A DNA stretch of 64,000 bases from Pocillopora damicornis (Eukaryota), in contig NW_020847248.1 in assembly GCF_003704095.1 (NCBI RefSeq), positions 930,001 to 994,000 on the forward strand. The letters run 5' to 3'. The position numbers and the translations under genes are program-made. This document shows, piece after piece, positions 14,101 to 64,000 of this stretch. Numbering within the stretch: the stretch's first letter is position 1; each line of letters begins with the position of its first letter. The notes below the pieces were generated by a model that was not told where the DNA came from, did no database searches, and was given only the letters and a program-made list of their open reading frames with translations.

Positions 14101-14263
14101 AGCCAACATCATTGTCACTCATCGCAAATGCTTCTGCTTCTTCCAACAACAACTGCTTTGCTTGCTCCTTTTGTTCTGCTGTCAGTCCACTCAAATCAAC
14201 TTCTGGTGACTAAGACAAGTTACTCTCAATTTTCTCAGTTAGTTTATGTTCTTCGCAGGGCAG
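11124..14263 (-). mobile_element. Ty3/Gypsy retrotransposon copy 3, inverted relative to copy 2, interrupted by gaps
   Basis: Reverse complement of ~6985-10872; RNase H region open at 12233-13341; ~180-bp internal deletion at ~11902. Confidence 0.95.
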
Positions 14264-14422: not shown

Positions 14423-14888
14423 CTAAAATCGTGTGGGTATTGTGTAACTTAACACCAGATGCGCCACAACCTTCATCGGCTTCTTAAGCTCCACGTTTTG
14501 TGTCAGGGCAGGGAGCTGCATGGACGTATGCTTTTCTTCCCGAACAGAATTCCGATTGGCTCCACCATGCTGCAGTCCTCCTGTCCCCTTATTTGAGAGG
14601 CTCTCTTGTATTGTAAAGTTATTTACAGAATTCCTATTATTCGACAAACCTAGACAGTATTTGTTGTCAGGTTTCTTTCCTGTTTTACCTGTATTTTGGT
14701 CATCTTTGCTAAAATTTTTACCGTGGATTCTGTTGTTTCCAGAATCGCTTTGATCCTGCACTTTGCTATCGCTATTGACAACTACATCTTGGCTAAAGTG
14801 TAGCTCTTGGCCTGGGTCCCTATCGCCGTATTCCACATTATTCATCACCTGGGCTTGTTCATCACCTACATTTGCGCCATTACTCCGC
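14423..14888 (-). CDS. Cytoplasmic-tail exon of YWTD-SEA-TM receptor, copy B
   Basis: ttctag acceptor at 14888 is phase 2, matching the TM exon donor (YKR|RSNGANVGDEQAQVMNNVEY...); N/D/S/K-rich; stop at 14423, or a 1-bp frameshift near 14485 leading to a phase-1 donor. Confidence 0.75.
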
Positions 14889-15582: not shown

Positions 15583-16464
15583 CTGTCGAGAAGGAAAGGA
15601 AATACGGTTGTTTTACATACCTTATGCTAAAGCATTATCATGTGGTGGTTGCACATTGCTTTATATTCAAGTTCCACATTCAGGTGCACTGAGTCAGAGC
15701 AATCAAGCACACTTGGTCACAGTGTTGGGTTCCCTCTGCCCCCTTGTCAAGTGAGGCAGTCACTTTAATTCGTCCATACGGGAAATAGCTTTGATGCTTC
15801 CCTTTTTTAATTATCAATGGTGTTTTCGCTCTGATGGGCATGCCTTCCCATGTTGGGTTTCCATAAATATTACTATATAGCAAGAAAATTTCAAACTATA
15901 ACGGTAATATACCAAAACGGAAATCATTTCNNNNNNNNNNNNNNNNNNNNNNNNNNNNNNNNNNNNNNNNNNNNNNNNNNNNNNNNNNNNNNNNNNNNNN
16001 NNNNNNNNNNNNNNNNNNNNNNNNNNNNNNNNNNNNNNNNNNNNNNNNNNNNNNNNNNNNNNNNNNNNNNNNNNNNNNNNNNNNNNNNNNNNNNNNNNNN
16101 NNNNNNNNNNNNNNNNNNNNNNNNNNNNNNNNNNNNNNNNNNNNNNNNNNNNNNNNNNNNNNNNNNNNNNNNNNNNNNNNNNNNNNNNNNNNNNNNNNNN
16201 NNNNNNNNNNNNNNNNNNNNNNNNNNNNNNNNNNNNNNNNNNNNNNNNNNNNNNNNNNNNNNNNNNNNNNNNNNNNNNNNNNNNNNNNNNNNNNNNNNNN
16301 NNNNNNNNNNNNNNNNNNNNNNNNNNNNNNNNNNNNNNNNNNNNNNNNNNNNNNNNNNNNNNNNNNNNNNNNNNNNNNNNNNNNGGAGCGGGAGATGGGG
16401 GTGAGGGTCAGAGGATATTTTTTTTTGTTACGATGAAATGTACTTCAAAAGAAAATTAGAATAC

Positions 16465-20824: not shown

Positions 20825-21670
20825 CTGTGAGGAGAGGAGAATAGCTAATTCAAAAATTCCACAAGATAACTGGTGAATGGGAAGCAGTACAGTAGAGAAA
20901 ATCAAATGGATTTGCCATCCGCCAGAACTTTAATATATGAACTTTAATATATTTCAAATCGAAAAGTTCTTCACGCGGAAATGAAACTTCCCCAGAAAAA
21001 GTCGCTAAACCCAATGAAATTACCGTCGATAGGAAATTCGCTAGCGTAAGGTGTATACAAAGAGCTTATCTACTCTCAAGAAAGGGTAGTTATCGATTTC
21101 CACGTTTAATCAAAGTACTGAGTATTTCACGCAAATACAATACAACGACTTATTGCGATTTATAATACCCGAGATACGACGAGCGGCCTGATNNNNNNNN
21201 NNNNNNNNNNNNNNNNNNNNNNNNNNNNNNNNNNNNNNNNNNNNNNNNNNNNNNNNNNNNNNNNNNNNNNNNNNNNNNNNNNNNNNNNNNNNATAAACAC
21301 CATAAATGAGACTTTAATCTACTTTCAAGACAAATTGAGTCGTTTACCCTAAAATCCTCAATGCGGAACAATTTAAATTTTTTTTCTTATACAATCAATT
21401 CAGGAAAACGCGCTTTAAATTTCCATTTAGAAGAATGTTTTATGGTACACATTTCAAAAAAGCCGCAGGGAAATCAGCAATACACCTTCAGTCACAAGTA
21501 TTAGAGGACTCTTTTATTAGTAAAAAGGCACTCAAAGTCGATGCATAACTATTTTTATCTGAAAATACAAAACGAAACAAACATTTTTGAACCATGATTA
21601 TCACTGCATTATCCACAAAGTTATTGGTTCACCAGTTTTAATTAACCAAATCAAATCTCTTTTTTAGTAG

Positions 21671-22937
21671 ATCTGGTGGCTGTCAGTATTACATTGGAAA
21701 TGAAAATGGAAGAGGTATTCTAATTTTCTTTTGAGGTACATTTCATCGTAACGCAAAGAAAATCATCTGACCCTCACCTTATCTCCCGCTCCTGGCGAAA
21801 AATTAATGTTTGGTGCCTTTCGCTTTCGCTCGGACACAATTGTCTGCCCTTTTGGACTTCTATGATGCTGCTACATGTAGCACTGGTTATTGCAGCTATA
21901 TATGTTCACTGAACTATCTGGAATTTGCTTGGCTGTGGAGGGGTGATCCAAAAGTCATCACATGAGAGGTCATTCCCGGCTTTGCTAAGCAATTGCAGCC
22001 TAAATACCCCAGGCACGACCAGTTAGGCACAGTACTCCTAAGCAGAGTTCGTTAAGGTTGGGCAGTTAAGGGGTTTGCTGGCTGACTAAAGGTCGAAGTT
22101 TTAATATTACTATAAGATAAGTTTGAAGATCCTACTCCATATTTTAATGAAATAATAATGATATTAAAATGTATTAAAATATGTTCATCAGTGGGAGGAA
22201 GATAAATTTAAACAGGCAGTCGTGAAAGGGATAAGAGACTACTGCTATGAGGATACATGCAGTTACAAATCAAGGTATTGCAAACGTTGTGGAAATTAAA
22301 TGATTTTCATTTTGATATATTAGCGTTGTAGTTTAGAATTTTCTTGCTATATAGTGATATTTATGGAAACCCAACATGGGAAGGCATGCCCATCACAGCG
22401 AAAACACCATTCATAACTAGAAAAAAGGAAGCATTCAAGCTATTTCGCATATGGACGAATTAAAGTGATTGCCACACTTGACCAGGGGGCGGGGGGAACC
22501 CAACACAGTGACCATGTGTACTTGACTGCTCTGACTCAGTGCACCTGAATGTGGAGCTTGAAGATAAAGCAGTGTGCAACCACTACATGATCATTCTTTA
22601 GCCAAAGACGTGTAAAACATCGTGATATCCTTTCCTTCTCAACAGAAACACAACCCTTGCAAAACAGTTATGCAGCATCTTTCCAAATGATTCCGAAGCC
22701 AGTTCAGCTCAGATCAGAGTCCTAAAGCAACCTGGAGGGTCTTCAGTGCTGAATCATACTGAAGTGGTTTTTTCACTTATTCTTCAAACCCAATCCAATT
22801 TATCCCGTATGGTAATTAAAAACAGCACTTTGGATTATATTGTACAAAAGAGTGTCTACTATATCAGCAAACATTTAGGTGGTTACAAGGTTATATATGT
22901 AAATTGTAACCCTCCATCATTCGAAAAATTTTGTAAT
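21671..22937 (+). CDS. Inverted copy C of the receptor; exons 21671-21714, 22192-22274, 22646-gap
   Basis: Reverse-complement paralogue of ~17750-19290 with intact splice sites; 23001-23191 mirrors the post-TM intron at ~14945-15130. Confidence 0.8.
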
Positions 22938-31354: not shown

Positions 31355-32384
31355 ATGGAAAGAGCATTTTCAAACTTGTCTGACTCTGAATGTACAAACT
31401 GCTCTGACGACTACTCTCAAGTACAGTGGACGTTGACATTCGCCTCAGTAATTAATAACCTTATCTATGATCGGCATTGCTGGCGCCATTGTGGGAACGC
31501 TAGGAAATGGCCTCGTCTTGCTGGCCATCCAAAGGAACGTCAAATTTCGTTTAGTTCCAGACTTCTTGATCTTCAGCCTTTCAACAGCTGACTTGCTAGT
31601 ATCAGGAATATATATGCCTTTTGACGTAAAAAATACAATTTGCTATCCAGTTCTGAAAAACAATGCCACATACACCATGATAACGAAATCTGTAGGCAAG
31701 TTAGCCTTGCTTGCTTCCATCGTCAATGTGGTTGGAATTACAATAGATCGTCTCACGGCAATCCGACGTGGCCATTACCATTACCACTACCAAAAACTAA
31801 TGACGAAGACGTTTGCTTTTTCTTACATATCTGTCACCTGGTTGACATCTGCAATCATTGCTGCTGTCTATTCATTCCCAGAAACCAACCAAAAATTTTT
31901 CTCGTGGATTTATTGCAAGACACTACTTTTAGCTACGATTTTCATGTACTCATATATTTTAAGGGTTGCACATGCGCAGCGTATTAGAATTGTGGCGATG
32001 CTACATCGAGACAACGAAGATAGATTTAGCAAGCAAACTCCTGTTTGCTTAGAAGATAAAGCAACGAAGACATTAAAGGAAAGCAAAGCTGCAAAAACAT
32101 TTGCAATTGTGGTTGGTGCCTTTGTAGTGACATGGATTCCGCTCATATTCTACCCATCAATTGCCCCATGGTCCGAAAGCTGGTACTACGAAGGCTTCGA
32201 ATGGGCCAAAACTTTCTCACTATGGAACTCCTTCCTAAATCGGTACATTTACTTTGCCAGAAACAGGCGATATAGGCAAACGACCTTGCAAATGCTCAAA
32301 ACTATTCAGTGCTGGCCACGTCTCCCTGCTCACCAGTCTCAAGTCGGCGTGGAAATATATGGAGAAACAACACCTAACAACTGA
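31355..32384 (+). pseudogene. Intronless rhodopsin-class GPCR (amine/adenosine-receptor-like), frameshifted copy
   Basis: GN (TM1), LSTADL, IDR, KAAKTFAIVVGAFVVTWIP, NSFLNRYIY; 4-bp insertion at ~31450 relative to the paralogue disconnects ATG 31355; NPxxY changed to NRYIY. Confidence 0.85.
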
Positions 32385-33353
32385 CTTGCTGCTACCCTTG
32401 ATCTCCTACAAACTCTTTCATTTAGTTTGACGGCTACTCTTTCATTGATGACTCTGGCCACCAATTTCGATGCGAAATTCCAACTTCTCCGGAAAATGCA
32501 GTGAGAACTAATTTAAGTTTGAAAAATACACTTTGTACGTGGAGCAACACCTCCATTTTACGTTTGCCATATTTCTCTTCAATCATTTCACCATCCACCT
32601 CCTCCCACCCCCTGTGATAGCACTTCAGCGATGGTGGGGCTTGACTACACACAAGACGTACTACGATCGACAGACAGACTTGATTGGTAAAGATGACGAT
32701 ATACTACTTTTGTTAAATCACTACCTTGATAACCACATCTCACCAAGCCAGATATGGCATGTCTTGGAAATCGTCCAACTATTAAGTAGGCTAACTAATA
32801 AGGGGTGGAAAGGAAATTTATTGTCATCTAAATCTCTGGGCACTGCTGGGCCTTTCTATTCTGAATATTGGCTTCCCTACACAATGGCTATCATCCAAAT
32901 ATTGCCCTTTCAAAGTATTTGAAATAAAAAAATTGTCTTTTTTTTTCTTTTAGAAATGACGTATTTATTTAAATCTATTTCCTTCGAGTGCTTTTTAAAT
33001 GCCGCCACGTGCCTTTGTCGCAACATGACTGAGAAATACTGATCATAATTGATCACTAATGATCACAAGACTCATTCCATTACACTATGCATCGCAAATT
33101 GCCTCTTTTATTATATTTAACTAAAATCTCTTGAAAACAGGTTGAATTCGACTATCTCGTATGTGGACTATGTCAGAAGAGGTGCAAAAGCAAGAGCGGG
33201 CTGAAACGACACCAAACGGCTAAACACAGAGACTACACAAGAACAATAACAGATTCCGTAAAGCGAAGCGGAGAGGAACAATATAGAGACTTAACCTTTG
33301 AGGTTTATTCAGGAATCGTTGAGAAGGCCAAAGTTAAAATTGTTGAAAAGAAA

Positions 33354-34224
33354 ATGAAGCCAAATTTGGTCAGAGAAGAAAAAAGTTCCTACCACAACAG
33401 TCCAGTAGACTCACAAGACTCTGCTGCAGATTTCAGTGAAATTCAAATCATCTATAAGCGCTTGGTGAAGTCTGGAAACGCTGAAAGATTTTATGCTAGT
33501 TTCTACTCTACAATAGTTTCGAATGCAGTTAAATATTTTCAGGGATTGTCGAGGAATGCTGCAACACTGCTATCTACCAAGGTTGCTGACTGTATGTTAG
33601 TGCACAGCAAGGAGAAAGTGGAAAACTCTGATCTAAGTACGTGTCCCATTAGCTAAACTTTCGGATGAAGAACAAGCTGGATTACAGTACATAGGAGGAT
33701 ATGTTCTCTATAAACTTCATAAGAAACTTGCAAATACTAGTAAATCATGGGAAAGTGAGCAGGCAATCTCCATACTCAAGGCTGGGAAATCAGAAGACCA
33801 GAATGTTATAGAAAGCCAGACGTTAACTTCATCTCTAAATCGTGGTGGTTTATGGGCAATAACAAAGAATGCCCAAACAATTTTTGAGAGAACTGAACAC
33901 TATTTTAGGGATATCACTTCTAAGACTAATTTACAAAAGCTTGAGTTCTCTTGTGTTATATCAAGATCTATTCATGATGTTGATTTAGTGTCAGCATACA
34001 TTTTAATGTTGTCTGATGTTGAACTGATAGTCCAAAGTGGTGTTGCCAAAGATGTATTACATAACATCATACAAATGTATGTCAGAGTACATTCATTCTC
34101 TTTTGCAAACAACATTATCCAGAAACACAAGATGAAATTAAAACAGTTAAAATCCAAAGCACTTCGTAAGGAAATAAGCAGAGCCTCTAAAGAATCTGAT
34201 CAAGAAAGGCCATTTGGTCCATAA
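33354..34224 (+). pseudogene. Second (convergent) ORF of the P-like element
   Basis: ERFYASFYS..EQAGLQYIGGYVLYKL..LNRGGLW..ERTEHYFR..YVRVHSFSFA; frameshift near 33650. Confidence 0.65.
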
Positions 34225-34755
34225 ATTCAACCATCCTGTAATGTTAAAAATTGTATTTTTGACTCTCCAAGAACAATAACATGCATGCTTTGCATTGATG
34301 CAAATTTAGATACAAATACTATGTCCACTTAAAGATGTGAAGCATTAACTTATGAAATGTACATCATAGAGAAATGTTGCAGTTGTGTGAAAATTATTCA
34401 CAAAACAATATCTATACTGTTTTCTTATATATAAGGCTAGAGTGACCCATTTCTATTGCTTTATTAATATCGTAACAACCAAAAGCTGGTTTTTGTCCTT
34501 GTTGATAGTGGTATTTGAATAAATGTAAGCCTTCATATCCATACCATGTTGGTCATCTTTTAATAATATTGTTCTCATGTCTAAATTTAGTACCTCAATT
34601 TCATCACTATTACTTAATCAGAACTGGAGCTATATTGAACGCATCACCTAATGACATTGTTATGTCTGTGATAAAGATAACTCATCATAGTAGTAACAAC
34701 CCAGTTATTGTACACATGCCAAAATATTGAGATTATTGTAATCTATGAAATCTTA

Positions 34756-36285
34756 TTACTGCTTTTTTCTCTTGGGCACTGGGTCATTTGAAACATTGAC
34801 CCATGATTTGTCTCTGTCTTTTCTTCCACGTGTATTTCCAGATTGACAGGAAACAGCTCACTGTACCCTGATGGTATTGTTGTTATAACCAAACATCTTC
34901 ATGTAAGGATTGTCATTTCTTTTTCCCAGTTTCCTTTGGTTCCCAAAGTATTCTTCTGGGGGATCTTGACAAAACCTCTCTGTTAAGACATACCCTACAC
35001 CTTCATTTAGAAGAAACTTTGTTGCCTCTATGACTGAATGTGCAGTAATCTGTAAGCCCTCATACGTCTGCCAGGATAGGAACATCTTACTTCTGGCATT
35101 CTGAGAGAAATTACCAGGGCAACTAGCTATGCTATCTTTCCAGTCTCTCAGTAAACCAAGGAAGTCATTTGTCAACCAGAGAAATCTTGGGTCATTCACA
35201 GATGAGTAAGGTGCTAGAAATGGCTTCCTCTTCCTAAGAGTTCAGCATATTTGAGCCTCTGCATCTGTAATGTGAGTTTGATTCGTTGTGGTGCTGTCTG
35301 TGATACTGGTGAAAATAAATGTGCGGGCTCATTCAGTTTCTGTTTAGCCTTGTGAATGAGTTCAGATCTATGTGAATACTGGTAACAACTTGAACACTTT
35401 TCACCATGTTCAAACAAAACCGTACAACTATGAGTTCTCCAATATTCTTTATGCGGAAATGAATTGAAATCACCATCATTGTCAATGAACAATGGATCAA
35501 TAGACTTTGGAATTAAATGATGGACTATATTTCTGGATAATTCAAATAGTTCCACACCAGGACAGATATATAGGCTGTTGATATTTCGTAAAAGTTCAGA
35601 CACTGTAATATTATAAACAGATTTTAAGTTTGTAGTATGTATCTCTTGGTCTTCTGAAAGGAGCCATCCATAGACAGAAATTGTAAACCCTAGACTATCA
35701 TCAATCATCAACTCAAATTCTGGAAGCATTACTGCACTTTTCTTTTGTAATATAAGTCTATCCTCTAGTTCCTGGACTGTCCATTCCTGCTATGTTTTCA
35801 AAGTTTTTACTCGTTTACAGAGGTCACTGAAGCTTCTATAGTATTTCTGGTGGCTCTCTGTAACAGGTTTGTCTTGTACCACAGATCTCAATGGACGTGC
35901 AACAGGTTTCACCGTGTCATGACTTCTCTTTGGCATATTGAAAGTTGGCAAGGCTCCAAACTTTGGTCTTGTTTTCGCGATTGAACTGAAATAAAAATAA
36001 AAGAAAAGCGATCTGTAACAACAATCTGTATAAGAATATAAAGTTCAAACCCGAATCAGGGAGACATCATTTTTGTGGCCGGTCGTGTTTACATGGATAC
36101 CAGATATGTTTATTACAGACAACTCGAGTACTTACATGTCTCTATATCGTCAGGATCGAAATGTTTCTCACATGTAAACACCTTGCCATTATCGATCTGA
36201 TTTTGGAAGTCTTTGTCGATGACTCTCGTCTTTGTCGGCTCATTTAGCCACTCTTCTCGCCACTTCTTGTATTCTGCAATTCGTG
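34756..36285 (-). pseudogene. THAP9/P-element transposase pseudogene with central deletion
   Basis: THAP remnant TCEKHF, CxxC region, abrupt junction at ~35215 into [36 protein letters not shown] (RNase H-like C-terminal motif). Confidence 0.88.
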
Positions 36286-36357
36286 GGATTGGGTAACCAC
36301 CCCCCTACGTTACCGAAATAAAATAAATTGTATTGTATTGTATTGTATTGTATTGTA
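36286..36357 (+). repeat. 3' tail of a non-LTR retroelement ending in (TATTG)n
   Basis: ggtaaccacccccctacgttacc hairpin, then aataaaataaa and 5-6 TATTG units. Confidence 0.5.
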
Positions 36358-48545: not shown

Positions 48546-51500
48546 CCCGTATGAACCTGAAATTTATCGATGAAATTGGTCAACAGGCTTCACTCCTGCA
48601 ACCGTCTATACAAGGGACTTAAGTGCGGCGTTATTTCTTCAACTTGAATTTATAAACGATATAACCTCTTACTTTTGAAACGTAGAAAGAATTCGTGTTT
48701 CTTGCACGAACATTAACGAAGCTAGAGCTGATTTTCTTCATAGCTTGATGTATATGATTTGTCACGGTTCGAATTTTTCTTTTGCTCGAGTCCTCGCGCC
48801 TCGTGTGTACACTTACGGTAAAATCACGGCAGACGAAGCCTTGACTTATGTGTAAGTCCTTGATAATGAAAGATGGTTTAGTGGATAAACAACTTACCTA
48901 TCTGAAGTAAATGCCATCGACGATATGTCTTGATCCTTTGGCTCCAAGCAATGATTTCTTCCAAATCAACGAATATGAGTGAAAAATTTTAGCTTTAGGA
49001 CAGACGTAAGTCCTCCACGTCGTCAATCCATTAGAGCTGTTACACGAAGGCGAATGACGACAGTGATAAATATTAAATAAGTCACGAGAATAGTAACCCA
49101 CTTAGGAGTAGTTATTTTTGTTTCTTTCGGCCACGGAAACCACTTCAATGAGCGGTTCCTGTAAAAGGCGATCTGTAATTAAATGCTTTGTCTAAAAGAA
49201 GCGCTCAACCATGAACCACGCTACACTGCAACACTTCAGTTCAAAAGGACAAAGACAACCCGTAGAAATACCTATACACAGCATTTTTTTTGAATAATTG
49301 TATCCTGAAGTCATTTGCTAAGTGCAGTGCTGTAAGGTTAATGCTGAACGTTATTGTAGCCGCTTTTGAGAGCTTTAAAGCCCCTTCCTGTCCGTAGATG
49401 ATTAACCCAAACTGAGGGAGAAAATAATGAAACGGGAGCTGTAAATGGTTTTTGAAAACTGCTTTTTCCTAGTCAGGTTCCATTTCCATTAAAAAAGACA
49501 AAGATAAACAAATTCTTGTTATGCACTCTTTGATATTATATTGAAGACAAAAGCTAACCATAAGATAAATATAGAATCCATACTAAGGGGGCAGATATTG
49601 AAAGTAGCAGCTTTCTATAATTTCTTTAGAAAGTAAATACCAATACCAAAAAATTAAGTTACTATTAGCAACATATGCTTTGCGGCATTGGCTCTATTTT
49701 CAAAGGTGCCTGAATACCGTACAGGTTTCTTTCCTTGCGATTTTTCATAATTTGTTGCGCATTCCCCATGACATATAAAATAAAATAAGGCTGCATGAGA
49801 ATGTTGGTGCAGCAAAAAAAGCGTGATAAGGCCATTGATTTAATTGAGATTTTTGGGGGGTTATTTCTTCGTTGACTGGAAAGTTCTGAGAAAAGCTAAG
49901 AATTTACCGTATAGTTAGTTTGACATTATGTTGCTATCTGAGTGCTTTACGAATCTATTCAGACCATTTGATTCGTCAGAATGATTTTTTTTGCCTTGTC
50001 TTAACCGTGGGTAGCAGGTAAAAGCCCGCACATAAGCAGTAGATTAACAACTTATGGCCATTTTTCTCAGAAAAAATTACAGCAGTTTTACTACCCAAGG
50101 CTGTTATCTAGGCTCTAAACGAATGTAAGTGGCGAATGATTTCACAATAATAACTCTTCGAATAAACACATTGTTTTAAATCTCACCGGTCGCAAAAATT
50201 TAACTTTTTCTCCTGACTCTTGGTAAAAGATCACTGGATAAGCTTTTTCCTAGGTCACCTTACATCCAAAAGGATGATGTGAGATGCAAGACTATGTCTG
50301 GTTTTTCTTTAAATTCACAATTATGCATTGTTCTTCACCAAGATGCATTCGAAGCAATATCAGTTGATAGGGCCAATGAATAACCAGTCTATCTAATTTC
50401 GACAGTAATAAGAAGTGACTGCGGCACGGAATGTCAAGAACTTTTGACTCGGTCGAGCACGGCCCGGAAAGCGAATACATTATGGAACAAAGAATCAATA
50501 AATTCCTTCATGGTTTTATAACTTTCTACAGGAAGTTGATTGAAAGCGACTGAATACTTCACTACTCTGGTAAGATCTTTTAATCACTTGGGCTATTTAT
50601 GATCGACATACCATCGCGGTTCTTCTCTAAAAGGATGGAAAACTTCGTAAATTCGGTAGGTGTAACACGCAAAAATTGGTGACTATCAAGATGAAGTCTC
50701 ATCGTAAATTCTTGCAGCCTCCATTTCAGAGAAAACCTGTCAATGCTTACGCGACGGAAAGGAAAAAGGGCCAGGAAACAAAAACAAAAAACAAAAAACT
50801 TCAAAGCAAAACAAACAAACAAACAACAAAAAAAAACATTTTTCCTGTTGAAAATATCAGGACTTTTGGTTGTTTGTAATTTATCTTGGAGTGATTGTTT
50901 CAATATCATCGGGATCTTTTTTTGGCCTTCGGCCTTCGAAAAGCAGCAAGCATTGTAAGAAAAAATCGATTAGCGGCGAAGGATGTTTCAGTGAAAATTC
51001 AAATGGGGAAAGGGCGCGCTTAAAGCAGCGTTGGGGGAATTTTCTTCTACATTAATGAGCATTTCGCTGCCAACAAGTGATGAAGATGAATCCAGTAAAT
51101 AGAGCGACAAATGAATAAGTAAAGAAATGCGTAAGTAGAGTTAAAGAGCCAGTCATAACATGCTATAATTCAACTACAAAGACAAACCATAGGGTCATTG
51201 GCTTCGCAGTTGAAGTTATACAGTTTATTTTACAAAATAAAAATAAGTACAAAAATAGATCTAAGCGAAAATCCAGAGAGCAATCGATAATTGCAAAGCT
51301 AGCCACTCGTTAGCCTAGCTTCGTTGGAACTTAGGAAAGCATCGCAGCCTCCCATCCGCTCCCCTCGAAAAAAAGACTTCATTGCTCCTTGATTGAGTGT
51401 CTCAAAGGAGACGATCCTCTAGATTTTGCTCCTAATGAAAATATTTCGGCCATTATTTATCAAAAAGAATAAAAAACCAAACAATAAAAAAACAAAAGTA

Positions 51501-52802: not shown

Positions 52803-53364
52803 TTAAGATTGTGATTGATCATTAGGCTGTTTGTTCTCTTCCAAAATCACCGCGGTCCGTCCACCATCATTTCCTGTCAGTGTTTGGTATCGGTCTTCTT
52901 CTTTTTCCTTTTCATTTGCCGTATGGTCATTCTTGGCTTCTTTTTCTTTACCAAAAGACAAAGAAACGTATCGTGGATCTTCTTGTTTGGATGCTTCCCC
53001 CTGAACAATGATTTCCACGAACTCTGGCTTTGCTTCTTTATCGTCTGGAAGTGGTTCCTTCTTGGGCAGCTCGCCTGGGGAAGCGTAGCTTTGATCAACG
53101 GACTCACCGTTAGCCTCGTCTCGTTTGATATCCTCGGAAGAGGACATTTTAGTCATACCTATCTCAGCATAGATTGGATTGGACACTCCACTGGCCTCTG
53201 TCGTTTCTTGAAACGGAGAGAAGACCTCCGGATGTATGTCGTCGTAGTCTCCAGTACCGGCGCCGTCGTATCCCGGATTTTCAAAGGCCGTGGTGCGACG
53301 TTTCGACTCGTCCTCGTCTACTTCTCTCACATAAGGCAAGTTTAATTTACCTGTCCTCTTCATT
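52803..53364 (-). CDS. Terminal cytoplasmic exon with FENPGY and NPIY motifs
   Basis: Phase-2 acceptor matches TM exon donor WYFR|MKR; acidic tail rich in tyrosine motifs. Confidence 0.85.
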
Positions 53365-56300
53365 CTAATAAAAATCAATTAAGACAAATGAATGAATGAA
53401 TGAGGATGTTTAAATGTTGAGGATAGTTGATGTGATATTACGTTATGACGAGAGTTGATACACTCTGCAAATAATTATTGTATCGTATATAAAACCCGAT
53501 TTCTTTTGTGCAGCCGGAAGAGCAAGATAATCTCAATGTGAGTAGTGAACTTTTCTACATAAGAATCTTACTCACCTGAAATACCAGACGGCCAAGGCAA
53601 CCGTGATGAGAACAAGCCCCAAAGCTACGACTACCCCAGTAATCACTCCTGCATTCGATCGTCCGGATTGTGGCGCGGGCGTGGATTTTATGACTGATTT
53701 CTGTTTAACTGAGAGTACATCCCCTCCATTTTTACGTCCAATTGCCGCTGCGTTCTTTTTGGTCACATCAGCGACGAATGAAGCTGACACCGGCTCAGGT
53801 TCGCCTCTTTTAACCACAGCATACTCAACTTGGGTTCCTTCATCAACTTCTTTTGGATCAGAGGGAATGTAGATGTCTTCTTGTGTAAACGGGCCATTTA
53901 CAGCGCGTTTGACGATAGACGCAGGGCTGATAAATTAAAATTATTGATAAGACATTGATAAACGAATTGCTGAATGAAATAAATGATAAAGAACGAGTTG
54001 GTTAGGGAAGCAGACTTATCAGTTTCAGGGTGCATATAACCACCAATATCCTGGTAGTGAACACTAATTAGTAGACAGGCAGACATGTAGGTAGGTAACT
54101 GAATGGGTAACTGAGCAGATTTCATAGGTAACGGACTGCGTGGTTACTTGAATAAAATTTATTGCGTAATTAGTTGGTAAATATAAATGTGCGGTGTACT
54201 TTTGTATTATGAAAGCTGAAGTTTCGAGCGTTAGCCTTTCGCCATTCGCTCTAATGAAGGGCCGGAACGCTCGAAACGTCAGCTTTGAAACTTTTTACGG
54301 TGGCCAATTTACTTTATCAACTCATTTGATAATACCTAATTACCCTTTTGTTCTCTCCCACCGACGCAGCACCACAGTTTGTTGAGAAACTTCCCCCCTT
54401 TAAATAGGCGGTGGCCTGGTAAATCGGTAGAAGGTGGCTAAATACGTAAGAGGGAAGGTAAATAGGCGTATTTCGCAAATAATTCCTACCTTTTGCTAAA
54501 AAGGCATGAGTCAGGGTTCGCATTGCATTCTTTATTTAGTGCTACCACAATTGAGCGTGTGAAGACTGTTAGATTGAACTAAAAAGATATAAACAAATAA
54601 GTTGACATCGCGATTACGAAGTCTCAGGGAGAGAGTGCGTTTACGACATAATGAAACTCAAAGGAAATCTCCCCAAAATTTTCAATTACGGGGTGGACCT
54701 TGATTAGAGTGATGCAAAAACTTTGTTTGCTGTTTCGTTTCACGCTAAGCTTGGTGATGGGACTATCGTAATAAATTAAGGGAATTAATTGCTTTGTAAC
54801 GCACAGGGGAGAAAACCTTAAAGGTACCTTTTTGTTTAATTTTAAAGCAGCAACCTGCAAATTAAGATTGAAATTTTCCGTGTTCTGATCAGCTCGATAC
54901 AGCTTCTTTACCCGAACATGGCTGGTTAAAAGAACTTGAAGAAATATTGCGATAAACAGTTGGGATGATATTTCGAATTTACCAAGACAGAGATTGAGGG
55001 TTTTTCTTCCTAATTTCCTTGCTCCTTGTTGATAAGCACAGATAAATTTATTAAAGACAGCAAAAACCCTACGAGCTCGTACAATTTGTCGTCTTTGAAT
55101 TTAAGCCAAATGGAACAAGGCATCATGTCATTACCCAATACATAACAAAAAAACGGCATTACAGAAAGTCAAGACAGACGAAATTTTGGACAGCGCGCGC
55201 GCTATTTGTAATTTGCACTCGCGTTACATAAAAAATGCACTAATTTACAGCCAATCAGAAGTGCGTTTTTTTTTCATGTATATCATCAATTTTCGAAATG
55301 AAAATTTTGAGAACTTCATGTCAAATACGTAGACACCCAGTGGGGTGTATTTTATGAAGATGAACAAAGGCTAAAGTGTAATTCTTGACTAACCTCCGCT
55401 AAAGGCACCGCTAGTACCAACTGGACCGTTTCTTCTTCTGCATCAATGAAATATTGACTAAGTAAGTAAGAATTCGCCTCTTAACCTATCCTAGCCTGCC
55501 ATTTTACTTATTTGTTGGCAGAAAGAGCGAAAAAGTGGGGACGCGAATTAAAAACGGTGGGACTCAACCTCATAACGCAGTCGTAACCCTAACGGTCACA
55601 ACCTACGTTTTTCGTTCCCTCGCTCTTTCGCTCTTCTTCTTTGACAAAAAGCCAAGGACAGGCCAAACTAAGTCACATTTTAAAATGATGAATCAAAGAC
55701 GTTCATAGAGACTTGAAAAACAGTTAGTCATCAGCTTGGTTTACATAAAAAGAAAAACTAAGGAAAATGAATAAAATAATAAAATAAACAAACAAAGATA
55801 GTAAAAACGTAAACTATAAATAACAAACAGAAACACTAATTTTTTTCTTTTAAGGAAGTTTTAAGAGTTAAATTTTTTATAAAGAATATATATATGAGGT
55901 TGTGTCTCGAATTTTCACAATTACACAATTGCACCTTTACACAGATTCTGACTCACCTATATCAACCGAGCAAGTTGGACCCCCAAAGTACCCCACACAG
56001 CGGCAATGGAACTTTTTATTGACTGCAGGTTCAGATATGCACGTGGCTCCGTTCATACAAGGCACGCTGGCACAGTAGTCAATAGGCGTTGTAGGGGGTG
56101 CTGTGGTCGTCGTAGGCGGCGGCCAAACCACAACTGACGGTGAGCAATTCTGTCCATCGTTTGTGATATTCGGGCAATCACATTTGTATCCAGATGGAAT
56201 TTTGAAGCAGAGGTGCGTGCAGCTGTTTTTACTACATGGATGAATTGCTAAAAAAGAAATAAATTAAACCTAAGAGACTGAAAACCGCAGCTAGAGGTCT

Positions 56301-59300
56301 ATTCAGACAATGGTTGTTCAAGTGCTTCAAAACAATTTTAGACGAACTTGGAAGGTATCCGCAAAAGACGAATGAGATGAGAGTAAAAAAAATGTGACAA
56401 GATAGTCAAATTTATTCTCGCTTTGTGCCAAAGTTAATTAGGAGGGAAACGAATGGCCCCTAAAAAAAATTTATACGGCTTCGTGATATCATGATACTGT
56501 CATAAGAAATACTCACTTTCTTGTTCATAACGACCTTTTTTGACTGCAATTCCCCTTTGTCCATGCAGCCCAGAAACCTCAACTGAAACATCAGCATAGT
56601 TGGTCTTGTTGACTCGCAGAACCATTGCATGCCATAACGTTTCACCCCAATATAAGTATTGGTCATCGACAGCAATTCCATGTGGTTGTAAGAACAAGAA
56701 GACATTTTGAAGAACCGTATGGATAGAGTTGTTTCCGGAATCGAGATCGATGTAGAAGATGGCGGACTCGTCGTAGCTCACAAAGTATATGCGGTTAAAT
56801 GGAACGTCAAGGGTGATATACAAGGCATCAAAAGGTCTATCGAAGGAGGTGTTTCCCAGTGCAATTGTTGCTCTGTTTGATCCATCTAGTTGCGCGCTTT
56901 CAATAAAACCTAGAGCCGACCAGTACATGTACCTGGAAAAGAAACATTCTTCAAGATAAGGAAAAGAGTTTTTTCCTAAAGCCTTCCTGTTATTTCTCGC
57001 TTGAGCTGATTTTAAAAATTCGAAGTTAAGTTCACTTTATTGCAGATCAAGAGCACGAAATCAATTGTTGCGCCTCTTTTGCAAAATTCAAATTTCATAT
57101 CTTCGATGGCGAAACGACAAAGAAAGATGGATATAAAAAGTAGGAGCCGAATTATAGTACCTTTTCTTTACACTTAGATTCGAGTCATCAATCCGATCAA
57201 TAAAGCCAGCCTCAGTTTAACGTGCAACCATACAGAGATATGTATGTAAACGATGGCAATACCATGGCCTATCTTTGTAGTTTCCTGACATTTATGTCAT
57301 TCAGCATCGATATACAATGTGTTAAAAATAAACTCCGTCTGTTTTATTCTTCTCGATACATTTCAGCCTAAAAACCCATTGAACTAAATATTGCTCAAAA
57401 CTTTGCATTGTTCTGAACTAATTTACGTTTTTATTGTCGCATTAAACAAAAGCTAAGACTGACATAATCCATTGACATTCGTTACGTCACTCTCCAAAAT
57501 TATTTTGTTAGTCACAGACGATAATAGGAGTCAAACGCGATAAAAAAATGCATTCTGCCTTAACAGTTCTAAGAACAGTTATCCGAAGTGCGTTGAGAAC
57601 ACTTGAACTCAAAGTACTAACATTGATTTTATGATGCCATAAATTTGACTTTAGAAATTGTTTTAATTTTATTTGAGTGGTTCAACTCTGAGTCACCGTT
57701 CAAAATGGGTGGAAGACGATAAAATCAGGTCGTTGAGAATCAAAGGTGACCACGATCGCTTAACAGAGGTGAAAAATTGCAGTGCTAAAAGGGAAAAATT
57801 TCGAGACTTTGACCGATCGCTTAATACAGGGTGACTCGTTAGTACGGTGCCGCTTAATACAGGTTTGATTGTACACTGTAACTGCGACAATGAAAGTTTA
57901 ACCTACCCTCGAGTCGTATCCAAAACAATGTCCTGCGGTGATGGTTTCGGGTCAGAAATCAGCACTTTCCAGTTATCACCGTTGAGATTCGAGACTTCGA
58001 TAGTACCTTCGTCACTGTTTATCCAAAACACATTTCGTCCCACAAGATCCAAACCAATTGCCGTTGGTGAACCGTTATTACGTATTACTTCGTACATCTC
58101 TCCATTAAATTTGGATCGAGCGATCATGCCCAGGGAGGGTTCAGTCCAATAGATACGGTCTTCGAATGGATCAAAAGCTACTCTAGTGGGATTTTGTACA
58201 TTAGAAATTGGTAAAGGAGTCAGAATATCCCTAGTCAGCTCAGAGTAAGAAATCTTCTGGGAAAAGATATCAGCAACAAATATGACGTCACCAAGAGTAC
58301 CTAGAGGTAAAAGGAGGCATAAATTAGTTTATCAAAGGGAGAAAACACACGATAGAAAGTAGACTTGTATGAAGCCACTTGGTCCAGTCACTTATCAGTG
58401 AAGATGGAAATCTGGATCTGGCTATCATGTCATGGTGTAGCATTCAAAATGAACAAAAGCACTCACTCGTATAGATGTTGGGTATGTGTAATCATTGTAA
58501 GACGAGGGCGACGTTTAAGTCAGAGGGTTGTTCAGTTCCTTGCAATGGAACCAAGGTTGATGAAGCCTAGTTGCCTTGACAATTACGTCATGATTACGTC
58601 TTAGATTTGTCGCCTAAAACCACACCTGGAAACCTTCACTAATTGTACATGACCATGAAATATGACAAGAACAGGAAAGATATGGTGTCTTTTACAAGTC
58701 ATAAACTAAACACAATACACAAATAAACCTACAGGTTTTTCCATCTTCTTTTAGTACCATTCCAGACTTACACCTGCACTTCTGGTCATTTGGAGTCACT
58801 AGGCAGAGCTGTTCACATCCACCGTTATTCTGACATAGTGCTTCATCTGTAAAAGAAAAGTTTAATAAATTATTGGTTCTTGCTTAGCGTGCATATATCG
58901 AGTTATGGGTACACGCAGGAAGTTTAGATAGCACGAGACAAGCGTATGAGTTGCTCGAGGCGCCACTAGCTTTAGCTTGTTAAATTATTGTACGAGTCCT
59001 CTTTCAATTCTAGTTCTGTTAATCAGGTATCACAAAATTTAAAACTCAAAAGCAACTCGGCTGAGACGGGATTTTGCAAGGAAGTGTTGGTAATTTATTC
59101 AAACAAGCGCGACATCTACTGGCCAACTGATTATTTTTTTGTTTTTCCACAACAGTATATTACGAAAGTTAGTGCACCTCTCCACAAAATTAATTGGCTT
59201 AGTTTTTATTTTCACGCCGTAACTTCAAGAGGGGGCAGTTGAGCTAGTCCATGATTAGAAGTTCATTTGGTTTTAATTCCTAGAATTTACCTAGCACGTG

Positions 59301-62300
59301 ATCAAATATCAAGTGTTTTTTTCGTTAACAACATCAGCAACAGAGATTTCCGATAACCCATCGTTTCTAATATTGGGTCTTTTTAATTCTTTTATGAGAG
59401 ACCCAGCCTGTTTCACAGAAGTCCTGGTGGATAGCGGTATCAAAATTCTGTTCTTTGTCAGTCGTGTTTCCTTTCAAGATCGAGATGTTAGTAGTTTAAA
59501 AAGTCAAATAATAAGAAATTCAGACAACTAAACAGAATGGTGTGCGATTTTAGCGAATACCTGCACTTCTACGTCTTAAGATTCAAATTCTGACTTATGG
59601 TTTTGAGGTCGTTCAGCTACCTAGTCTTACGATGATATGATATAATTACCAGGAGTTATCATAGAGTTGTGTGCATATATCGCCGACGGATCCCCCAGAT
59701 CAGCAATCATCTCTTGAGCAACTGGGTTGTCTGTAATATTTGCTTTGAATACGGCACCAGTAAACTTTCCGTCACCCGAAGAAGTCCAATACAGCGTATT
59801 GTTTATTAGTGTCAGTCCTCTAGGGTGATGGAGATTTCCGGAAATAAATGTGCGGACCTCTTTATTGTCCAGATTGATGTAACGTATGAAGTCATGGGTT
59901 TGGTCAGAAAAGTACAAGCGCTTGTTAGGTTTATCCAGTGCTAAGTTAATGTATGTATAACTTAGAACGAAGGGCATAGTTGCGATAAGCATCTGGTTTT
60001 GTCCATCCATATCGGCTCGATGAATTGTCGTATTGATTAATCCATGCGATACATAATATATGTACCTGTTCGAGACAAATCAAATCAAAATAAAACAATA
60101 GCAATGTGAAGTATATGAAATATTTAAATAAAATTATTTTTCTATTTATAAATCGCTGGCGATCCTTGAAATTTGATTGGCTTTCATCGGTGCGATTTAT
60201 TCAAGAATCGCACCATTTTTACTCCAGCCAATGAGAAAGTGTTACAAAAAACACATGACTTTTAAGACTATTTAAAGTAACAAATCGAATTGCAGGAATA
60301 TGAATGACAACTTTTGCACATTTTTACAAAATCAGCTCAGTACTGGATCAAAACATTTTTTTCATACAGACTGAAAAATCCTTTCTTTAAGTGGCTAAAT
60401 CTTGCGATTTTAAAATGACTGTAATAACGTGATGATCAAACTGCGTGTTGAACAATTTTGGTCAGATAGAATACTTGTGATTTCAAATCAAACTCGCGTT
60501 GCGCACTCGTTCGATTTCGAAATCACGCGCATTATTTCAGAGCCAATAATATACATAAAAATTTTCAGTTGGCTCATTGGTTGAGAACACGCTAATTAAT
60601 CCCAAACAGCGCAGGAAGATGTAATTGAATGCAGAAAGTTAAAATTAAAATCTTTCTTGATTTTTTTTGTGATTTCGCGACAGGTGAGTCGCGAAATCAT
60701 AACAAAGTAATGGTAAAAAAATTCAAAATACCTAACAAAATTGGATTTTGAACACTTATCGAGGAATATTTCAATACAATAGCACCACTTCATGTCTTAA
60801 AAATTTTATCACTCTTGCCTAGAGATTTCATCAAGTCTTTCTTGATGCAAAGTGGATTATTTTGAGAAAAGTATCTGTAATAAAAACTTCTGGTGACAAC
60901 AATTGAATCATATAAACCGTTATTCTTATAATGACCAAAATTTTAACCGTTCGTCGTAATTCGATTCCATCACCCCATCAACTTTCTCTCTCAAAAGTGT
61001 ATACCGCGGATAAGCATAAAGACTCTTTCACACCTAATTCGGTGAAGCTTACCTTGATTCAATGTCTAAGACGATCCCTTGAGGAAACTCTACGTCAATT
61101 AGAACCGCTTGATAGGTTCCGTCAAGAGAGGCAACTCTAATATTATCGGCGTAAAAGTCAGCAAAGTAGATGTTCCTTCCAACAGTGTCTATTTGTACAC
61201 CCGTTAGGAAATAGTCTCTGAGAACTATTTCATCCGTGCCATTATGTATGGAAGCTCTTCTAATTTCTCCATAGTAATCTGTCCAATACATCTGTTCCTC
61301 TTTGAAATCGTAGGCTACTGCGATTGGCTTAGAGTTGAGTGTAATCCTTAAAGGAATCGGCTGTGCAGTAGAATTGGGCGGAGGCAGAGGCTGAAAGTGG
61401 CAGAGTTTGCGATTGTCATCGCAAAATAGCAAGAAATCATCTGCATCTGTGGAAGTGCATATAAATGAAAAATATGTGTCTGTGAGACAACTTTTAACCT
61501 AGTGAAACCACTCGAGAAAGGAGATGTAACCTACAATTACTCATCACGCAAGGAGAGAGAATAATTTCTTCCGACTTCGTGACTAGGAAAATGGGATTAG
61601 CTCTGGCTCCCTGGCCGAGGAGCAGATTAATTAGCTTTTTAGTCAATCTTCGAACAGTTAAGTTACTCTTTGGAATCTCAAAATTCCGATGACGGATATG
61701 AAAGTTTATGGTACTATGTACTTTATCAAATACTGAAATATGTGTCACTATATATGTTTAGTCTCATGCTTTGATCCCAAAAAATCAATGCTCGACTAGC
61801 AGACAGCCACTTCGCGCCTACTAATGTCTAACTTTTGACACAGCCGAGCTTTAAGAATAAAATTCTTACCTGGACTTCGAGTATCATTCGTGCATATGAC
61901 CGATGCATCTTCCTCGTGAAAGCAGTAGCCGATTACATTCCATCCTTTGTGCTGACAATCCTCGATTGAACTTTCAGTACCTAAACATTCCACATCTGCC
62001 AACCAGATGTGACCATTTCCTTCACCAAAAATAGCGTCCGTGGGAGCACTCAAAGCCTCCCGATAACCAAGTTCACGACACACAACGTCTGCATCCTTTT
62101 TATCCCAGGAATCGTCACAAATAGTTCCCCAGTGGCCATCATGAAATATCTCCACTCTTCCCTCACCCTCACGTATTCCGTCAGCTAGTCTCAGTATTTG
62201 ACCTGAGGAAAAAACGTTAATTTAGTGGATGTTACAATGATGGAAAGGGTTTTTTTCTTGTAAAAGTCTTTAAAGCGAATATACAGGGTAAATAATGTGC

Positions 62301-63171
62301 ATAAACAGAGTTCATCGTTACACCATGAGCTGTAAGAGAGTTTTGTAAATTGAGTCTCAAAATATGAAAAGCAATTTTGCTTTTGTTATCTTTTAATTTC
62401 TCGTGGGGAGTTTCAGACTAAAGTCATCTGTCATGCTGCGTGGAATAATGACTTGTTCTCGTGGTAAGGCCGGTAAACTTTTCTTTTTTTCTCATAAAAG
62501 GTTCTGTCGTTACGCAAAATGGAACGGACTTTACTTTCAGTCATCTTTGAAGTTTTTTTTGCGACCGACTAGTTTAGCCACTACGTCATTAAAAAGAAGA
62601 AAATTTCCACACTGCCATTTGGCGGAATTTTTAAATTTCTGTTTTCTAATATTTAATTTTACCAGCTTCTGGCTTACCTTGCCTTGGCAATGGAGTGTAT
62701 TTGCAGACTACACCAACGTCATCAGAGTGGAGGCAGTTCTGACTTCCCCACCCACCATGGCGACATCCTGCAATGCTTTCTTCGTCGCCAACACAATGCA
62801 CATCATCTAGCCAAATCTTGTCTGGTGTACTATATCCATCGTACCAACCGCAGCAGTGTGTACTCCAAGCACCTTCAGTATACCCCAGCATACGGCAAAT
62901 GACGTTTGCTTCCTCGATTCCCCAATCGTCATCGCATATGGTTCCCCAAGTACCGTTAAGGAAGAGTTCCACTCTTCCTTGATTTGACGTGATTCCAGAT
63001 CTTAAGCGAACCTTTAATTCTGGGCCAAGAGTAGGCAAAAAATCCTTAGTAATTTATTGTGGTCTCGTTAATACAACGCTATTCTGATATTTGCGATATG
63101 TAAAAAAATAAGACGATTGACTAAAATCATAATAAACTCACCCGGATGTGGTCCGGGAGAAAGTGTTGGGC
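52803..63171 (-). CDS. SRCR/LRP-like type I receptor (2xSRCR, 2xYWTD propeller, EGF, SEA-like, TM, NPxY tail); 5' end not identified
   Basis: Phase-compatible GT-AG exons: 63171-63142, 63019-62678, 62202-61870, 61446-61053, 60065-59650, 58846-58733, 58300-57907, 56932-56517, 56247-55957, 55437-55394, 54578-54490, 53926-53576, 53364-52803. Confidence 0.9.
53576..53926 (-). CDS. SEA-like C-terminal half plus TM exon of the SRCR receptor
   Basis: TQVEYAVV..VSASFVADVTKKNAAAIGRKNGGDVLSV; TM AGVITGVVVALGLVLITVALAVWYFR. Confidence 0.85.
54212..54402 (+). repeat. Hammerhead-ribozyme-containing short retroelement (Penelope/retrozyme-type), degenerate inverted HHR pair
   Basis: aaagctgaagtttcgagcgtt versus aacgctcgaaacgtcagcttt (21-bp inverted, 1 mismatch); core ctaatgaag..GAAACGTC with CTGAnGA mutated. 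Confidence 0.7.
55957..56247 (-). CDS. EGF-mucin-EGF exon of the SRCR receptor
   Basis: PCSKNSCTHLCFKIPSGYKCDCP..NC; PPPTTTTAPPTT; CASVPCMNGATC..FHCRCVGYFGGPTC. Confidence 0.88.
56517..58300 (-). CDS. Second YWTD propeller (exons 58300-57907 and 56932-56517)
   Basis: IYWTE, VFWIN, MYWSA, IYFVS, LYWGE repeats. Confidence 0.88.
57693..57875 (-). mobile_element. Tc1/mariner-type MITE fragment in an intron
   Basis: tacaatcaaacctgtattaagcggcac terminus with internal repeated cgcttaa(t)acag motifs. Confidence 0.45.
59650..61446 (-). CDS. First YWTD propeller (exons 61446-61053 and 60065-59650)
   Basis: MYWTD, IYFAD, LYFSD, LYWTS repeats. Confidence 0.88.
61870..63019 (-). CDS. Two SRCR domain exons (63019-62678 and 62202-61870)
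   Basis: GRVE..WGTICDD.W...A.V.CR.LG..IWL.DV.C.G.E.SI..C.H.GW...C.H.ED..V.C in both. Confidence 0.95.
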
Positions 63172-64000
63172 CTTTAAAATGAAAAGCATAAAGCAGAACA
63201 GATTAGCTGTAAAATTCTAAATAAAACACACTAATGTTATTTTAATCCATTTTCCAGTCTCCTAGAGAAAACCTTATCGATGGCTTGTTAATGACCAAGC
63301 TCGAGGGCCGTATTTCTAGGGAATTTTGGCTCGAGGTCGGGCTAGTAGGGCCAATATTCCTCGGTGCCTTTCAAGCAAGCGATGTTAGCCTGTAGCTTGT
63401 TGTACTGCACTTGAACTAGACTTGTAAAATTTGACTCTTCCTGGTGTCGAGAACAAAAATACACGACTCGAACTATAACCTAATCTGTGGAAACGGCCCA
63501 TATGGCAAAGTCCCGACCATATAATTCAGAATTATGAATAAAAGAATCTTAAACGTTCATAGAGATTATCATGAAAGTAAAAAACTCACAAACCGAATCC
63601 TTGGCCTAATGTTTCATTAAAGTGTCAGGCAGAAAGCTGACAGGCAGAAATCGGGACCAAAAAGCTTGAAGCAAATACCCAGTAGTAACAAACTCAATTT
63701 CGCAGGAGATGGAGTATGCTCAACCATACCATTACTCTCAATGCTATTTCATACTCAAGAAAACAATACCATACATCATTTAAAATAGAACCACGACTAG
63801 GCTCTGTTGTTGAGATATACTCGTGCCAAAGGTCTACAAACTGTGTTTACCTTCAGGAGAAGGAACAGAGTCATTTCTGCAGACAACTCCTGCGTCTTCG
63901 CTATGGAAGCAATTATGCATCTCCCAGCCATCGTGCTGACAAGCCGCAATGGTGTGCTCATCACCGCGGCACTTAACATTATCCATTAAAATGGGAAACG

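Follow-up and report, generated by a model that had tools for sequence, protein, structure and literature searches.

Related receptor systems

Two neighbouring receptor genes, here called A and B, lie on the reverse strand of a 64,000-nucleotide stretch of the Pocillopora damicornis genome (contig NW_020847248.1, positions 930,001 to 994,000; hereafter the window, whose own numbering is used throughout). Their closest described relatives belong to the LDL-receptor family (LRP4, LRP5/6, LRP2), in which NPxY and Yxx tail motifs have established roles in uptake and sorting. With that family the coral receptors share YWTD propeller-EGF units, the position of LDLR intron 10 and a single transmembrane (TM) helix, and their best solved relatives are LRP2, LRP4 and LRP6; the FxNPxY tail is found in A alone. 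They differ from it in having a SEA-like stalk, in lacking LDLa repeats (Pfam finds none in the full-length B-type proteins P0002, P0004 and P0039 or in the visible part of A), in the SRCR domains and eroded YWTD repeats of A and in the death domain of Pocillopora B. On balance, we read A and B as distant paralogues and neighbours, not as a matched pair for one ligand.

Stalks of the SEA-like type are widespread among receptors that are otherwise unrelated, and several of them work as proteolytic switches (excerpts of PMC6586460, citing Pei and Grishin 2017). CELSR1, PCDH15 MAD12, CDH23 MAD28, MUC16, GPR126 and IA-2 carry the fold predicted for B at the same membrane-proximal place, and Notch HD and KIAA1549, whose SEA-like domains are cleaved by furin-like enzymes, have a basic site in the loop, as A does (excerpts of PMC13570299). 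The coral module departs from these in having no sequence-level match, in a cysteine pair after its first helix and in adjoining an EGF domain or propeller rather than a cadherin or LNR domain.

Like A, the cnidarian SR-I-like and DMBT1-like proteins are type I membrane proteins with SRCR domains in tandem (Neubauer et al., excerpts of PMC5119243). SR-I has SRCR domains alone and the DMBT-like proteins have CUB, whereas A adds propellers, EGF domains and the module, so it is not class I. The available portion of that text mentions neither YWTD, propeller nor SEA, and two of the three LDL rows in its supplement are MAM-LDL-CUB proteins. A C-terminal death domain like that of the B gene models P0001 and P0002 is found in the TNFRSF death receptors, UNC5, p75 and MyD88. 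The B ectodomain differs from theirs in being a propeller with a SEA stalk: P0001 and P0002 have no TNFR cysteine-rich repeats and no Ig or TSP domains, and B has neither the ZU5/UPA of UNC5 nor the TIR domain of MyD88. In excerpts of PMC8260672, death domains are noted in coral NOD-like receptors and NF-kB and not in propeller-SEA receptors. Paired receptors, finally, bind ligands through regions that closely resemble each other and signal in opposite ways (excerpts of PMC3533184), and KIR, LILR, CEACAM and CD300 resemble A and B in their adjacency, related ectodomains and different tails.

Neither an SRCR-YWTD-EGF-SEA-TM-NPxY nor a YWTD-SEA-TM-death-domain architecture was found in the literature searched, which covered few subscription papers, and the related proteins of Pocillopora verrucosa, Stylophora and Desmophyllum are named just uncharacterized or hypothetical.

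The shared juxtamembrane module

Both genes contain the three small exons that a preliminary description of this DNA had reported: a 44-nucleotide (nt) phase 1-0 exon (A 55437-55394, B 19015-18972), a phase 0-2 exon of 89 nt in A (54578-54490) and 83 nt in B (18496-18414), and a phase 2-2 TM exon (A 53926-53576, B 18038-17595). In A, where RNA supports the exon model, the first would encode the first SEA-like strand, the second the first helix with two cysteines, and the third a Lys-Arg loop, the rest of the SEA-like domain, a linker and the TM helix. The phases recur in other A-type loci, for both small exons in L003 and L006 and for the second in L001, L002, L004 and L008, with lengths of 47 and 92-95 nt. 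The exact 44-nt match was dropped as a sign of kinship; it is at least partly luck, since other A-type genes differ in length.

By sequence comparison the A and B modules are homologous. Aligned pairwise they are identical at 24 of 121 positions (global z 3.8-5.2 and local z 1.8-4.7 against 1000 shuffles), and this test is independent of the mixed-profile sets. With HHalign, family profiles without the TM helix match at 92% over the whole module (score 43, shuffle maximum 20) and at 88% over the TM-exon part; in neither case did any of 100 column shuffles come near. A profile of B rows scores the A module at 11.0 bits, the best of 932 reported shuffles reaching 6.0. When a mixed A and B TM-exon profile was searched against 1.84 billion representative proteins, 22 matches were returned (12 A-type, 9 B-type and one spurious), mostly single exons of unknown context; the spurious match, P0024, which by eye has cystatin-like repeats, was discarded.

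The B module is predicted to adopt a SEA/ferredoxin-like (beta-alpha-beta-beta-alpha-beta) fold. Its structure was modelled from a 24-row alignment with a predicted local distance difference test score (pLDDT) of 78 and a predicted template-modelling score of 0.78, and the model was compared with 48,161 solved chains. The best matches were CELSR1 (Z 8.9, root-mean-square deviation 2.2, 96 aligned), Nup54 (8.7) and PCDH15 MAD12 (8.4), with MUC16 SEA (7.1), CDH23 (6.9), GPR126 (6.4) and IA-2 (6.2) further down; these Z values lie near the tool's background ceiling of 7-8, and the top 12 rows are all of the SEA-like class or Nup54. The fold had been anticipated in the preliminary description; for B it is upheld by the predicted model and its structural matches, and for A it is suggested by the 92% profile match to B. 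Canonical SEA domains of the MUC1 type have an autoproteolytic G-S motif, which is absent from the module alignment. The module profile, searched against the sequences of solved structures, gave one irrelevant match (E 0.36), and a model of whole-length P0001 was poor (pLDDT 45).

A collinear cassette in two subfamilies

We consider it likely that the whole cassette was duplicated, and that this happened before Pocillopora and Desmophyllum split, because the propeller-EGF-EGF-module-TM order of a B-type protein from Desmophyllum pertusum, P0039, is collinear with the C-terminal half of A (489 columns, 24%, E 7.5e-34). P0039 starts with a signal peptide, which is followed by the propeller, two EGF domains, the module and the TM helix; an A-type transcript, the spliced contig L007, is likewise collinear (546 columns, 24%). 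A single phase 1-1 exon of A encodes the EGF-EGF part, which is present in the Desmophyllum B-type protein and absent from pocilloporid B, whose propeller has no EGF domain after it, and an EGF pair also stands upstream of the module in loci L003, L006, L007 and L008.

A tree of 28 modules divides the A-type and B-type sequences at 100/99 into separate clades. A-type loci were confirmed in 8 of 409 stretches; the short flanks of these eight, which say nothing about synteny, gave no match to B or to a death domain. B-type sequences were found in 0 of 89 metagenome stretches and 0 of 48 viral ones, and A-type sequences in 0 of 345 viral contigs. One assembly holds six A-type loci at 53-89% identity, some of them perhaps alleles, P. 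verrucosa has two B copies, and the window itself keeps an orphan A-type tail at 30351-30144. We lean, with somewhat better than even confidence, towards A and B being two old subfamilies within an LRP-like receptor family of corals that combines a SEA stalk with interchangeable tails, endocytic in A and signalling in B.

Gene A

Gene A is real and expressed. It runs from 63171 to 52803 in 13 exons with canonical splice ends (AG/GT) and a single open frame of 1257 amino acids, and the peptides quoted from it and from B in the preliminary description all lie where they had been placed. RNA contigs from four runs in four studies join all 12 introns, 11 of them in every run and intron 54578-55394 in three of the four. 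A further RNA joint, 63170-63850, present in 4/4 runs, leads to an extra upstream exon encoding a third SRCR domain (Pfam E 2.6e-11), of which the 3' part occupies 64000-63851. The gene extends past the window, its 5' end lying outside, and the domain content given here is that of the visible part: at least three SRCR domains, propeller, EGF, propeller, EGF, Pro/Thr linker, EGF, module, TM helix and tail. Within the 13 exons Pfam recognizes two SRCR domains, Ldl_recept_b in the propeller exons (weakly in two of the four) and EGF, so that the combination of SRCR and YWTD without LDLa, described earlier as atypical, holds for this part of the gene.

Downstream of the third SRCR domain, a Pro-rich linker exon of 30 nt (63171-63142, phase 1-1) precedes two phase 1-1 SRCR exons (63019-62678, Pfam E 1.6e-29; 62202-61870, E 1.3e-32). 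Propeller 1, with eroded YWTD repeats, spans 61446-59650 in exons of 394 nt (61446-61053, phase 1-2) and 416 nt (60065-59650, phase 2-1), with Ldl_recept_b at E 0.0076 and 5.8e-08. An LRP-type EGF exon (58846-58733, phase 1-1; FXa_inhibition E 1.5e-11) separates it from propeller 2 (58300-56517), whose exons have the same lengths and phases (58300-57907 and 56932-56517) and whose best solved relatives are LRP4, LRP2 and LRP6. The EGF-linker-EGF exon at 56247-55957 (phase 1-1), assigned by Pfam and by alignment to B-type proteins, leads to the module. The tail exon (53364-52803) encodes 186 amino acids with FENPGY, a second NPxY and four Yxx-hydrophobic motifs, and all six tyrosine motifs recur in L001, a locus whose tail is 46% identical. 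RNA contigs carry the 3' untranslated region (52802-51161) to about 51160-51195, with AATAAA at 51229 near a poly(A)-like loose end. Apart from the extra upstream exon and the 3' untranslated region, the RNA also contains two in-frame insertions, one of 9 nt at 53805-53807 in the module loop (2/4 runs) and one of 15 nt at 56096 in the Pro/Thr linker (3/4 runs), which are length variation among colonies or species.

After the second module exon, Lys-Arg or Arg-Arg is found in all nine A-type proteins that cover the site and in all six loci read. None of 21 B-type proteins is dibasic at the aligned place, and two residues further along they have a cysteine; in P0028 a Lys-Arg stands four residues earlier. 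By analogy with Notch and KIAA1549, a convertase may cut A at its Lys-Arg site. NPxY is present in the tails of A and L001 and NPxF in that of L003, and neither occurs in any of the seven B-type tails. The A-type copies L006 and L007 differ in the tail from L001 and L003 (without and with NPxY motifs). A search with the A TM exon found no full-length A protein among 706 candidates of 204-2000 amino acids; A may be longer than 2000 amino acids, which makes the missing protein weak evidence.

Gene B

Gene B is not one clean gene: two to three exon copies are scattered across gaps of N between 22937 and 14423, one of them inverted. A signal-peptide exon of 61 nt (43088-43028, phase 0-1) matches the N-terminus of P0002. 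Copy 1 (20824-17595) has propeller exons at 20824-20431 and 19876-19464, followed by the module exons given above; its TM exon is 99% identical to P. verrucosa P0001 and its tail is lost in an N gap. Copy 2 (17162-14423) consists of exon 17162-16744, the 44-nt exon 16508-16465, TM exon 15582-15181 and a tail exon from 14888, with the 83-nt exon presumably inside the N gap at 15931-16384. The tail exon has an internal donor after 14689 or else reads through to a stop at 14423. Copy 3, on the forward strand between N gaps (21671-22937), retains the 44-nt exon, the 83-nt exon and part of the TM exon. A tandem acceptor stands before its 44-nt exon (21668-21671), and some proteins have one extra residue at this joint (P0002 and P0004, compared with P0001 and P0003).

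The tail add-on lies at 4752-2480 on the reverse strand, with exons 4752-4708 and 3707-3576 (phase 1-1) and a death-domain exon, 2952-2480; 151 of 157 positions compared are identical to P0001. What had been called a probable death domain is real (Pfam E 8.2e-10). Its best solved matches are MyD88 (E 6.6e-07) and UNC5B (1.6e-06), which are nearly tied, with p75 at 0.023. Joining 15582-15181, 14888-14689, 4752-4708, 3707-3576 and 2952-2480 gives an open frame in which the phases fit without a stop. The B gene of this window is probably a mosaic of copies, because the first three exons on this path, including the 45-nt exon 4752-4708, are nearer to P0002 and the last two nearer to P0001.

P0001 and P0002 lie on one 31-Mb contig of P. 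verrucosa, and each has a propeller, module, TM helix and its own death domain (70/101 identical). The P0001 model starts inside the propeller without a signal peptide, and one of the two P. verrucosa copies is perhaps incomplete or has been damaged. These two are the only death-domain proteins among seven B-type proteins with tails; another of the seven, P0032, is possibly cut short, and Stylophora is represented by isoform X2 alone, so a death-domain isoform is possible there. The tails of P0032, P0034 and P0004, which have no death domain, carry repeated Tyr-Glu-x-hydrophobic motifs, a pattern that suggests tyrosine-based signalling.

Relationship of the two genes

The propellers of both genes are split by a phase-2 intron, as the preliminary description had noted; the first propeller exon is 394 nt long with phase 1-2 twice in A and once in B. 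The exon ends map to about residues 526-529 of LDLR, the same place as intron 10 of human LDLR (c.1586+1, Gly529_Phe530; excerpts of PMC9291778). Because the intron is also that of human LDLR and is family-wide, it is uninformative on the kinship of A and B, and we rejected it as a sign of such kinship.

Several further results weigh against the reading of A and B as two old subfamilies, A serving uptake and B signalling. The first half of A propeller 2 scores 31 bits against the B propeller and 62 bits against human LRP6 propeller 1, to which the B propeller itself scores 94 bits. The module tree is unrooted and contains no outgroup SEA or LRP sequences, so it cannot show sisterhood, and the family sets were drawn with a mixed A and B profile, which favours members like both. 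As to the fold, Pfam SEA (PF01390) matches none of the 24 module rows up to E 1, Foldseek with the B model gives no match at E 0.001, and language-model matches to SEA and KIAA1549 clusters reach 0.77-0.81 (0.79 for A), below 0.9, and are leads only. Strict furin sites include a P4 Arg, which most A-type dibasic sites do not have. The A-type tail L007 has neither an NPxY nor a Yxx motif, and uptake is accordingly not family-wide. The mixed-alignment search, with 20 matches among 7999 scored proteins of at most 2000 amino acids, returned no full-length A. In B, the predicted junction between TM helix and death domain crosses N gaps and joins exons of mixed origin.

The propellers give no sign of sisterhood, and a special closeness between them is not supported; fast change in both lines or separate origins could explain the scores. 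The proposal that the genes are ancient tandem paralogues survives in part, in that module homology, the shared cassette and the position of the genes as neighbours on one strand make old paralogy likely, while the propeller intron and scores lend it nothing.

It is for this reason, and because the module tree is without outgroups, that separate shuffling has to be considered: a mobile (EGF)-SEA-TM exon block may have been joined independently to unrelated LRP fragments, with the adjacency of A and B due to chance or to a region that collects pieces. Each propeller being nearer to human LRP6 than to the other, the family-wide intron, the occurrence of SEA-like stalks in many unrelated receptors (PMC6586460, as excerpted) and the symmetrical phase 1-1 units of the upstream exons, one of which B lost cleanly, would all agree with such an origin. 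We nevertheless think it unlikely: the order propeller-EGF-EGF-module-TM is collinear in both subfamilies, 21 of the 22 profile matches are A- or B-type with no third architecture among them (most being single exons without context), and fast change in both lineages would give the same propeller scores.

A second alternative concerns the end of B. Past the internal donor, the tail exon reads through 14688-14423 in a frame open for 88 codons, and this stretch resembles tails without a death domain, being identical to that of P0003 at 25 of 60 positions and to that of Stylophora P0004 at 24 of 59, above all 1000 shuffles, with a frame shift close to the end. The read-through form is possibly a death-domain-free isoform. 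B might then really end at the read-through stop, and the death-domain exons might be part of another gene close by, or of a splice form that is rare, and owe their fusion to B to the gene models. Five of the seven B-type tails are without the domain, and a retrotransposon, N gaps and an orphan Tudor-like exon (5419-5634) stand in between. On the other side, the two P. verrucosa models on one contig each have their own death domain, which is what duplication of the entire unit would give, the phases fit, and the death-domain exons open in phase 1, no separate start having been seen for them. We regard a gene-model fusion as quite unlikely; it is compatible with the other readings, and its probability can hold alongside theirs. 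Because the read-through resembles the P0003 and P0004 tails, the simplest order of events would be an older B tail without the death domain and a later add-on through the internal donor, both splice forms being perhaps still alive.

That A and B form a functional pair for one ligand, A taking it up and B sending a death-domain signal, linked since an old tandem duplication, is improbable: this assembly puts them on one strand, with 9.7 kb from the stop of A (52803) to the start of B (43088), as for clustered paired receptors, and they share the cassette, YWTD propellers and the contrasting tails correctly predicted earlier (NPxY and tyrosine motifs in A, a death domain in B), but their ectodomains are 24-27% identical and differ in length and domain content, their modules fall in separate clades that have each expanded alone, the death domain is confined to two of seven B-type tails, both from Pocillopora, and tails vary inside each branch. 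The preliminary idea of an ancient pair for uptake and death signalling is accordingly not sustained. The same low identity and differing domains set A and B apart from KIR, LILR, CEACAM and CD300, and no ITIM/ITAM (immunoreceptor tyrosine-based inhibitory or activation motif) contrast is shown. Copies within one subfamily may make more promising true pairs.

Proposed mechanism and significance

Under our reading of A and B as two old subfamilies, the core of the family would be a YWTD propeller, two EGF domains, a SEA-like ferredoxin domain and a TM helix. A would have acquired another propeller and three or more SRCR domains, and pocilloporid B would have lost the EGF-EGF exon. The SRCR domains and propellers of A could capture cargo multivalently; a proprotein convertase could cut at the Lys-Arg in the SEA loop, leaving the ectodomain held non-covalently as in Notch and KIAA1549; and the FxNPxY, NPxY and Yxx-hydrophobic motifs could drive clathrin uptake and sorting. 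B would be a short receptor with one propeller, whose SEA stalk is richer in cysteine and stays uncut; its tail, in the older form, would be disordered and often bear tyrosine motifs. In Pocillopora the internal donor in the last exon would add a death domain of the MyD88/UNC5/p75 type, so that ligand-driven clustering could gather death domains and recruit death-domain adaptors. The exon layout, the spliced introns of A, the homologous modules, a SEA-like model of B and the conserved motifs are observed; we infer the fold and cleavage of A, its endocytosis, the ligands, signalling by B and the order of events in the B tail.

More speculatively, corals may have an LRP-derived receptor family of their own, mounted on a SEA switch and free to exchange tails. 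The Pocillopora B branch with a captured MyD88-like death domain might then signal directly, bypassing a TIR step, to IRAK/NF-kB or a caspase platform, the read-through form might act as a decoy, and convertase-cut A might clear or shed the same ligand, giving a sensor and sink for microbes or symbionts; we rate this as a long shot.

The uptake and sensing of microbes and symbionts by corals are incompletely described, and an expressed SRCR/LRP hybrid with conserved uptake motifs is a concrete candidate for a part in them; the related B receptor, whose death domain was maybe gained recently, is a second. B would also illustrate how an internal splice donor can give a receptor a signalling tail, with a decoy form possibly left over. 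If paralogy alone holds, the two genes are one more outcome of cnidarian domain shuffling.

Other features of the window

The window, whose sequence is animal DNA, contains 17 N gaps. In a self-comparison the stretches flanking the gaps often recur elsewhere in the window at 74-96% identity, some of them inverted, and because of this we take them to be alleles or tandem copies placed side by side by the assembly; the order below about 48 kb is unsure.

Between A and B lies a single-exon gene for a rhodopsin-type G-protein-coupled receptor (48051-47528, reverse strand), interrupted by an N gap. A second, inverted copy at 31452-32384 on the forward strand has 88% DNA identity, with the frame apparently shifted at its start. 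Pieces of a Ty3/gypsy-like retrotransposon occupy 6280-14263 in both orientations, with N gaps, between the B tail exon and the death-domain exons. The element is about 8 kb long, as judged from self-matches and from open reading frames read by eye as protease, reverse transcriptase/RNase H and integrase; a further piece is at 127-754, and the pieces are 94-96% alike. Within the presumed B tail intron, the orphan open reading frame at 5419-5634 (reverse strand, 72 amino acids, with a possible donor at its end) has weak Tudor/chromo/MBT matches at E about 0.001, below the cut-off. By eye, open reading frames at 33135-36304 resemble zinc-finger and THAP/P-element-type transposase fragments.

At 30351-30144 on the reverse strand the start of an A-type tail exon, including FENPGY, stands alone (tblastn, 40% over 47 amino acids, E 0.004). 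It has a phase-2 acceptor, runs into a repeat and has no TM exon close by, and it is a remnant of another A-type copy.

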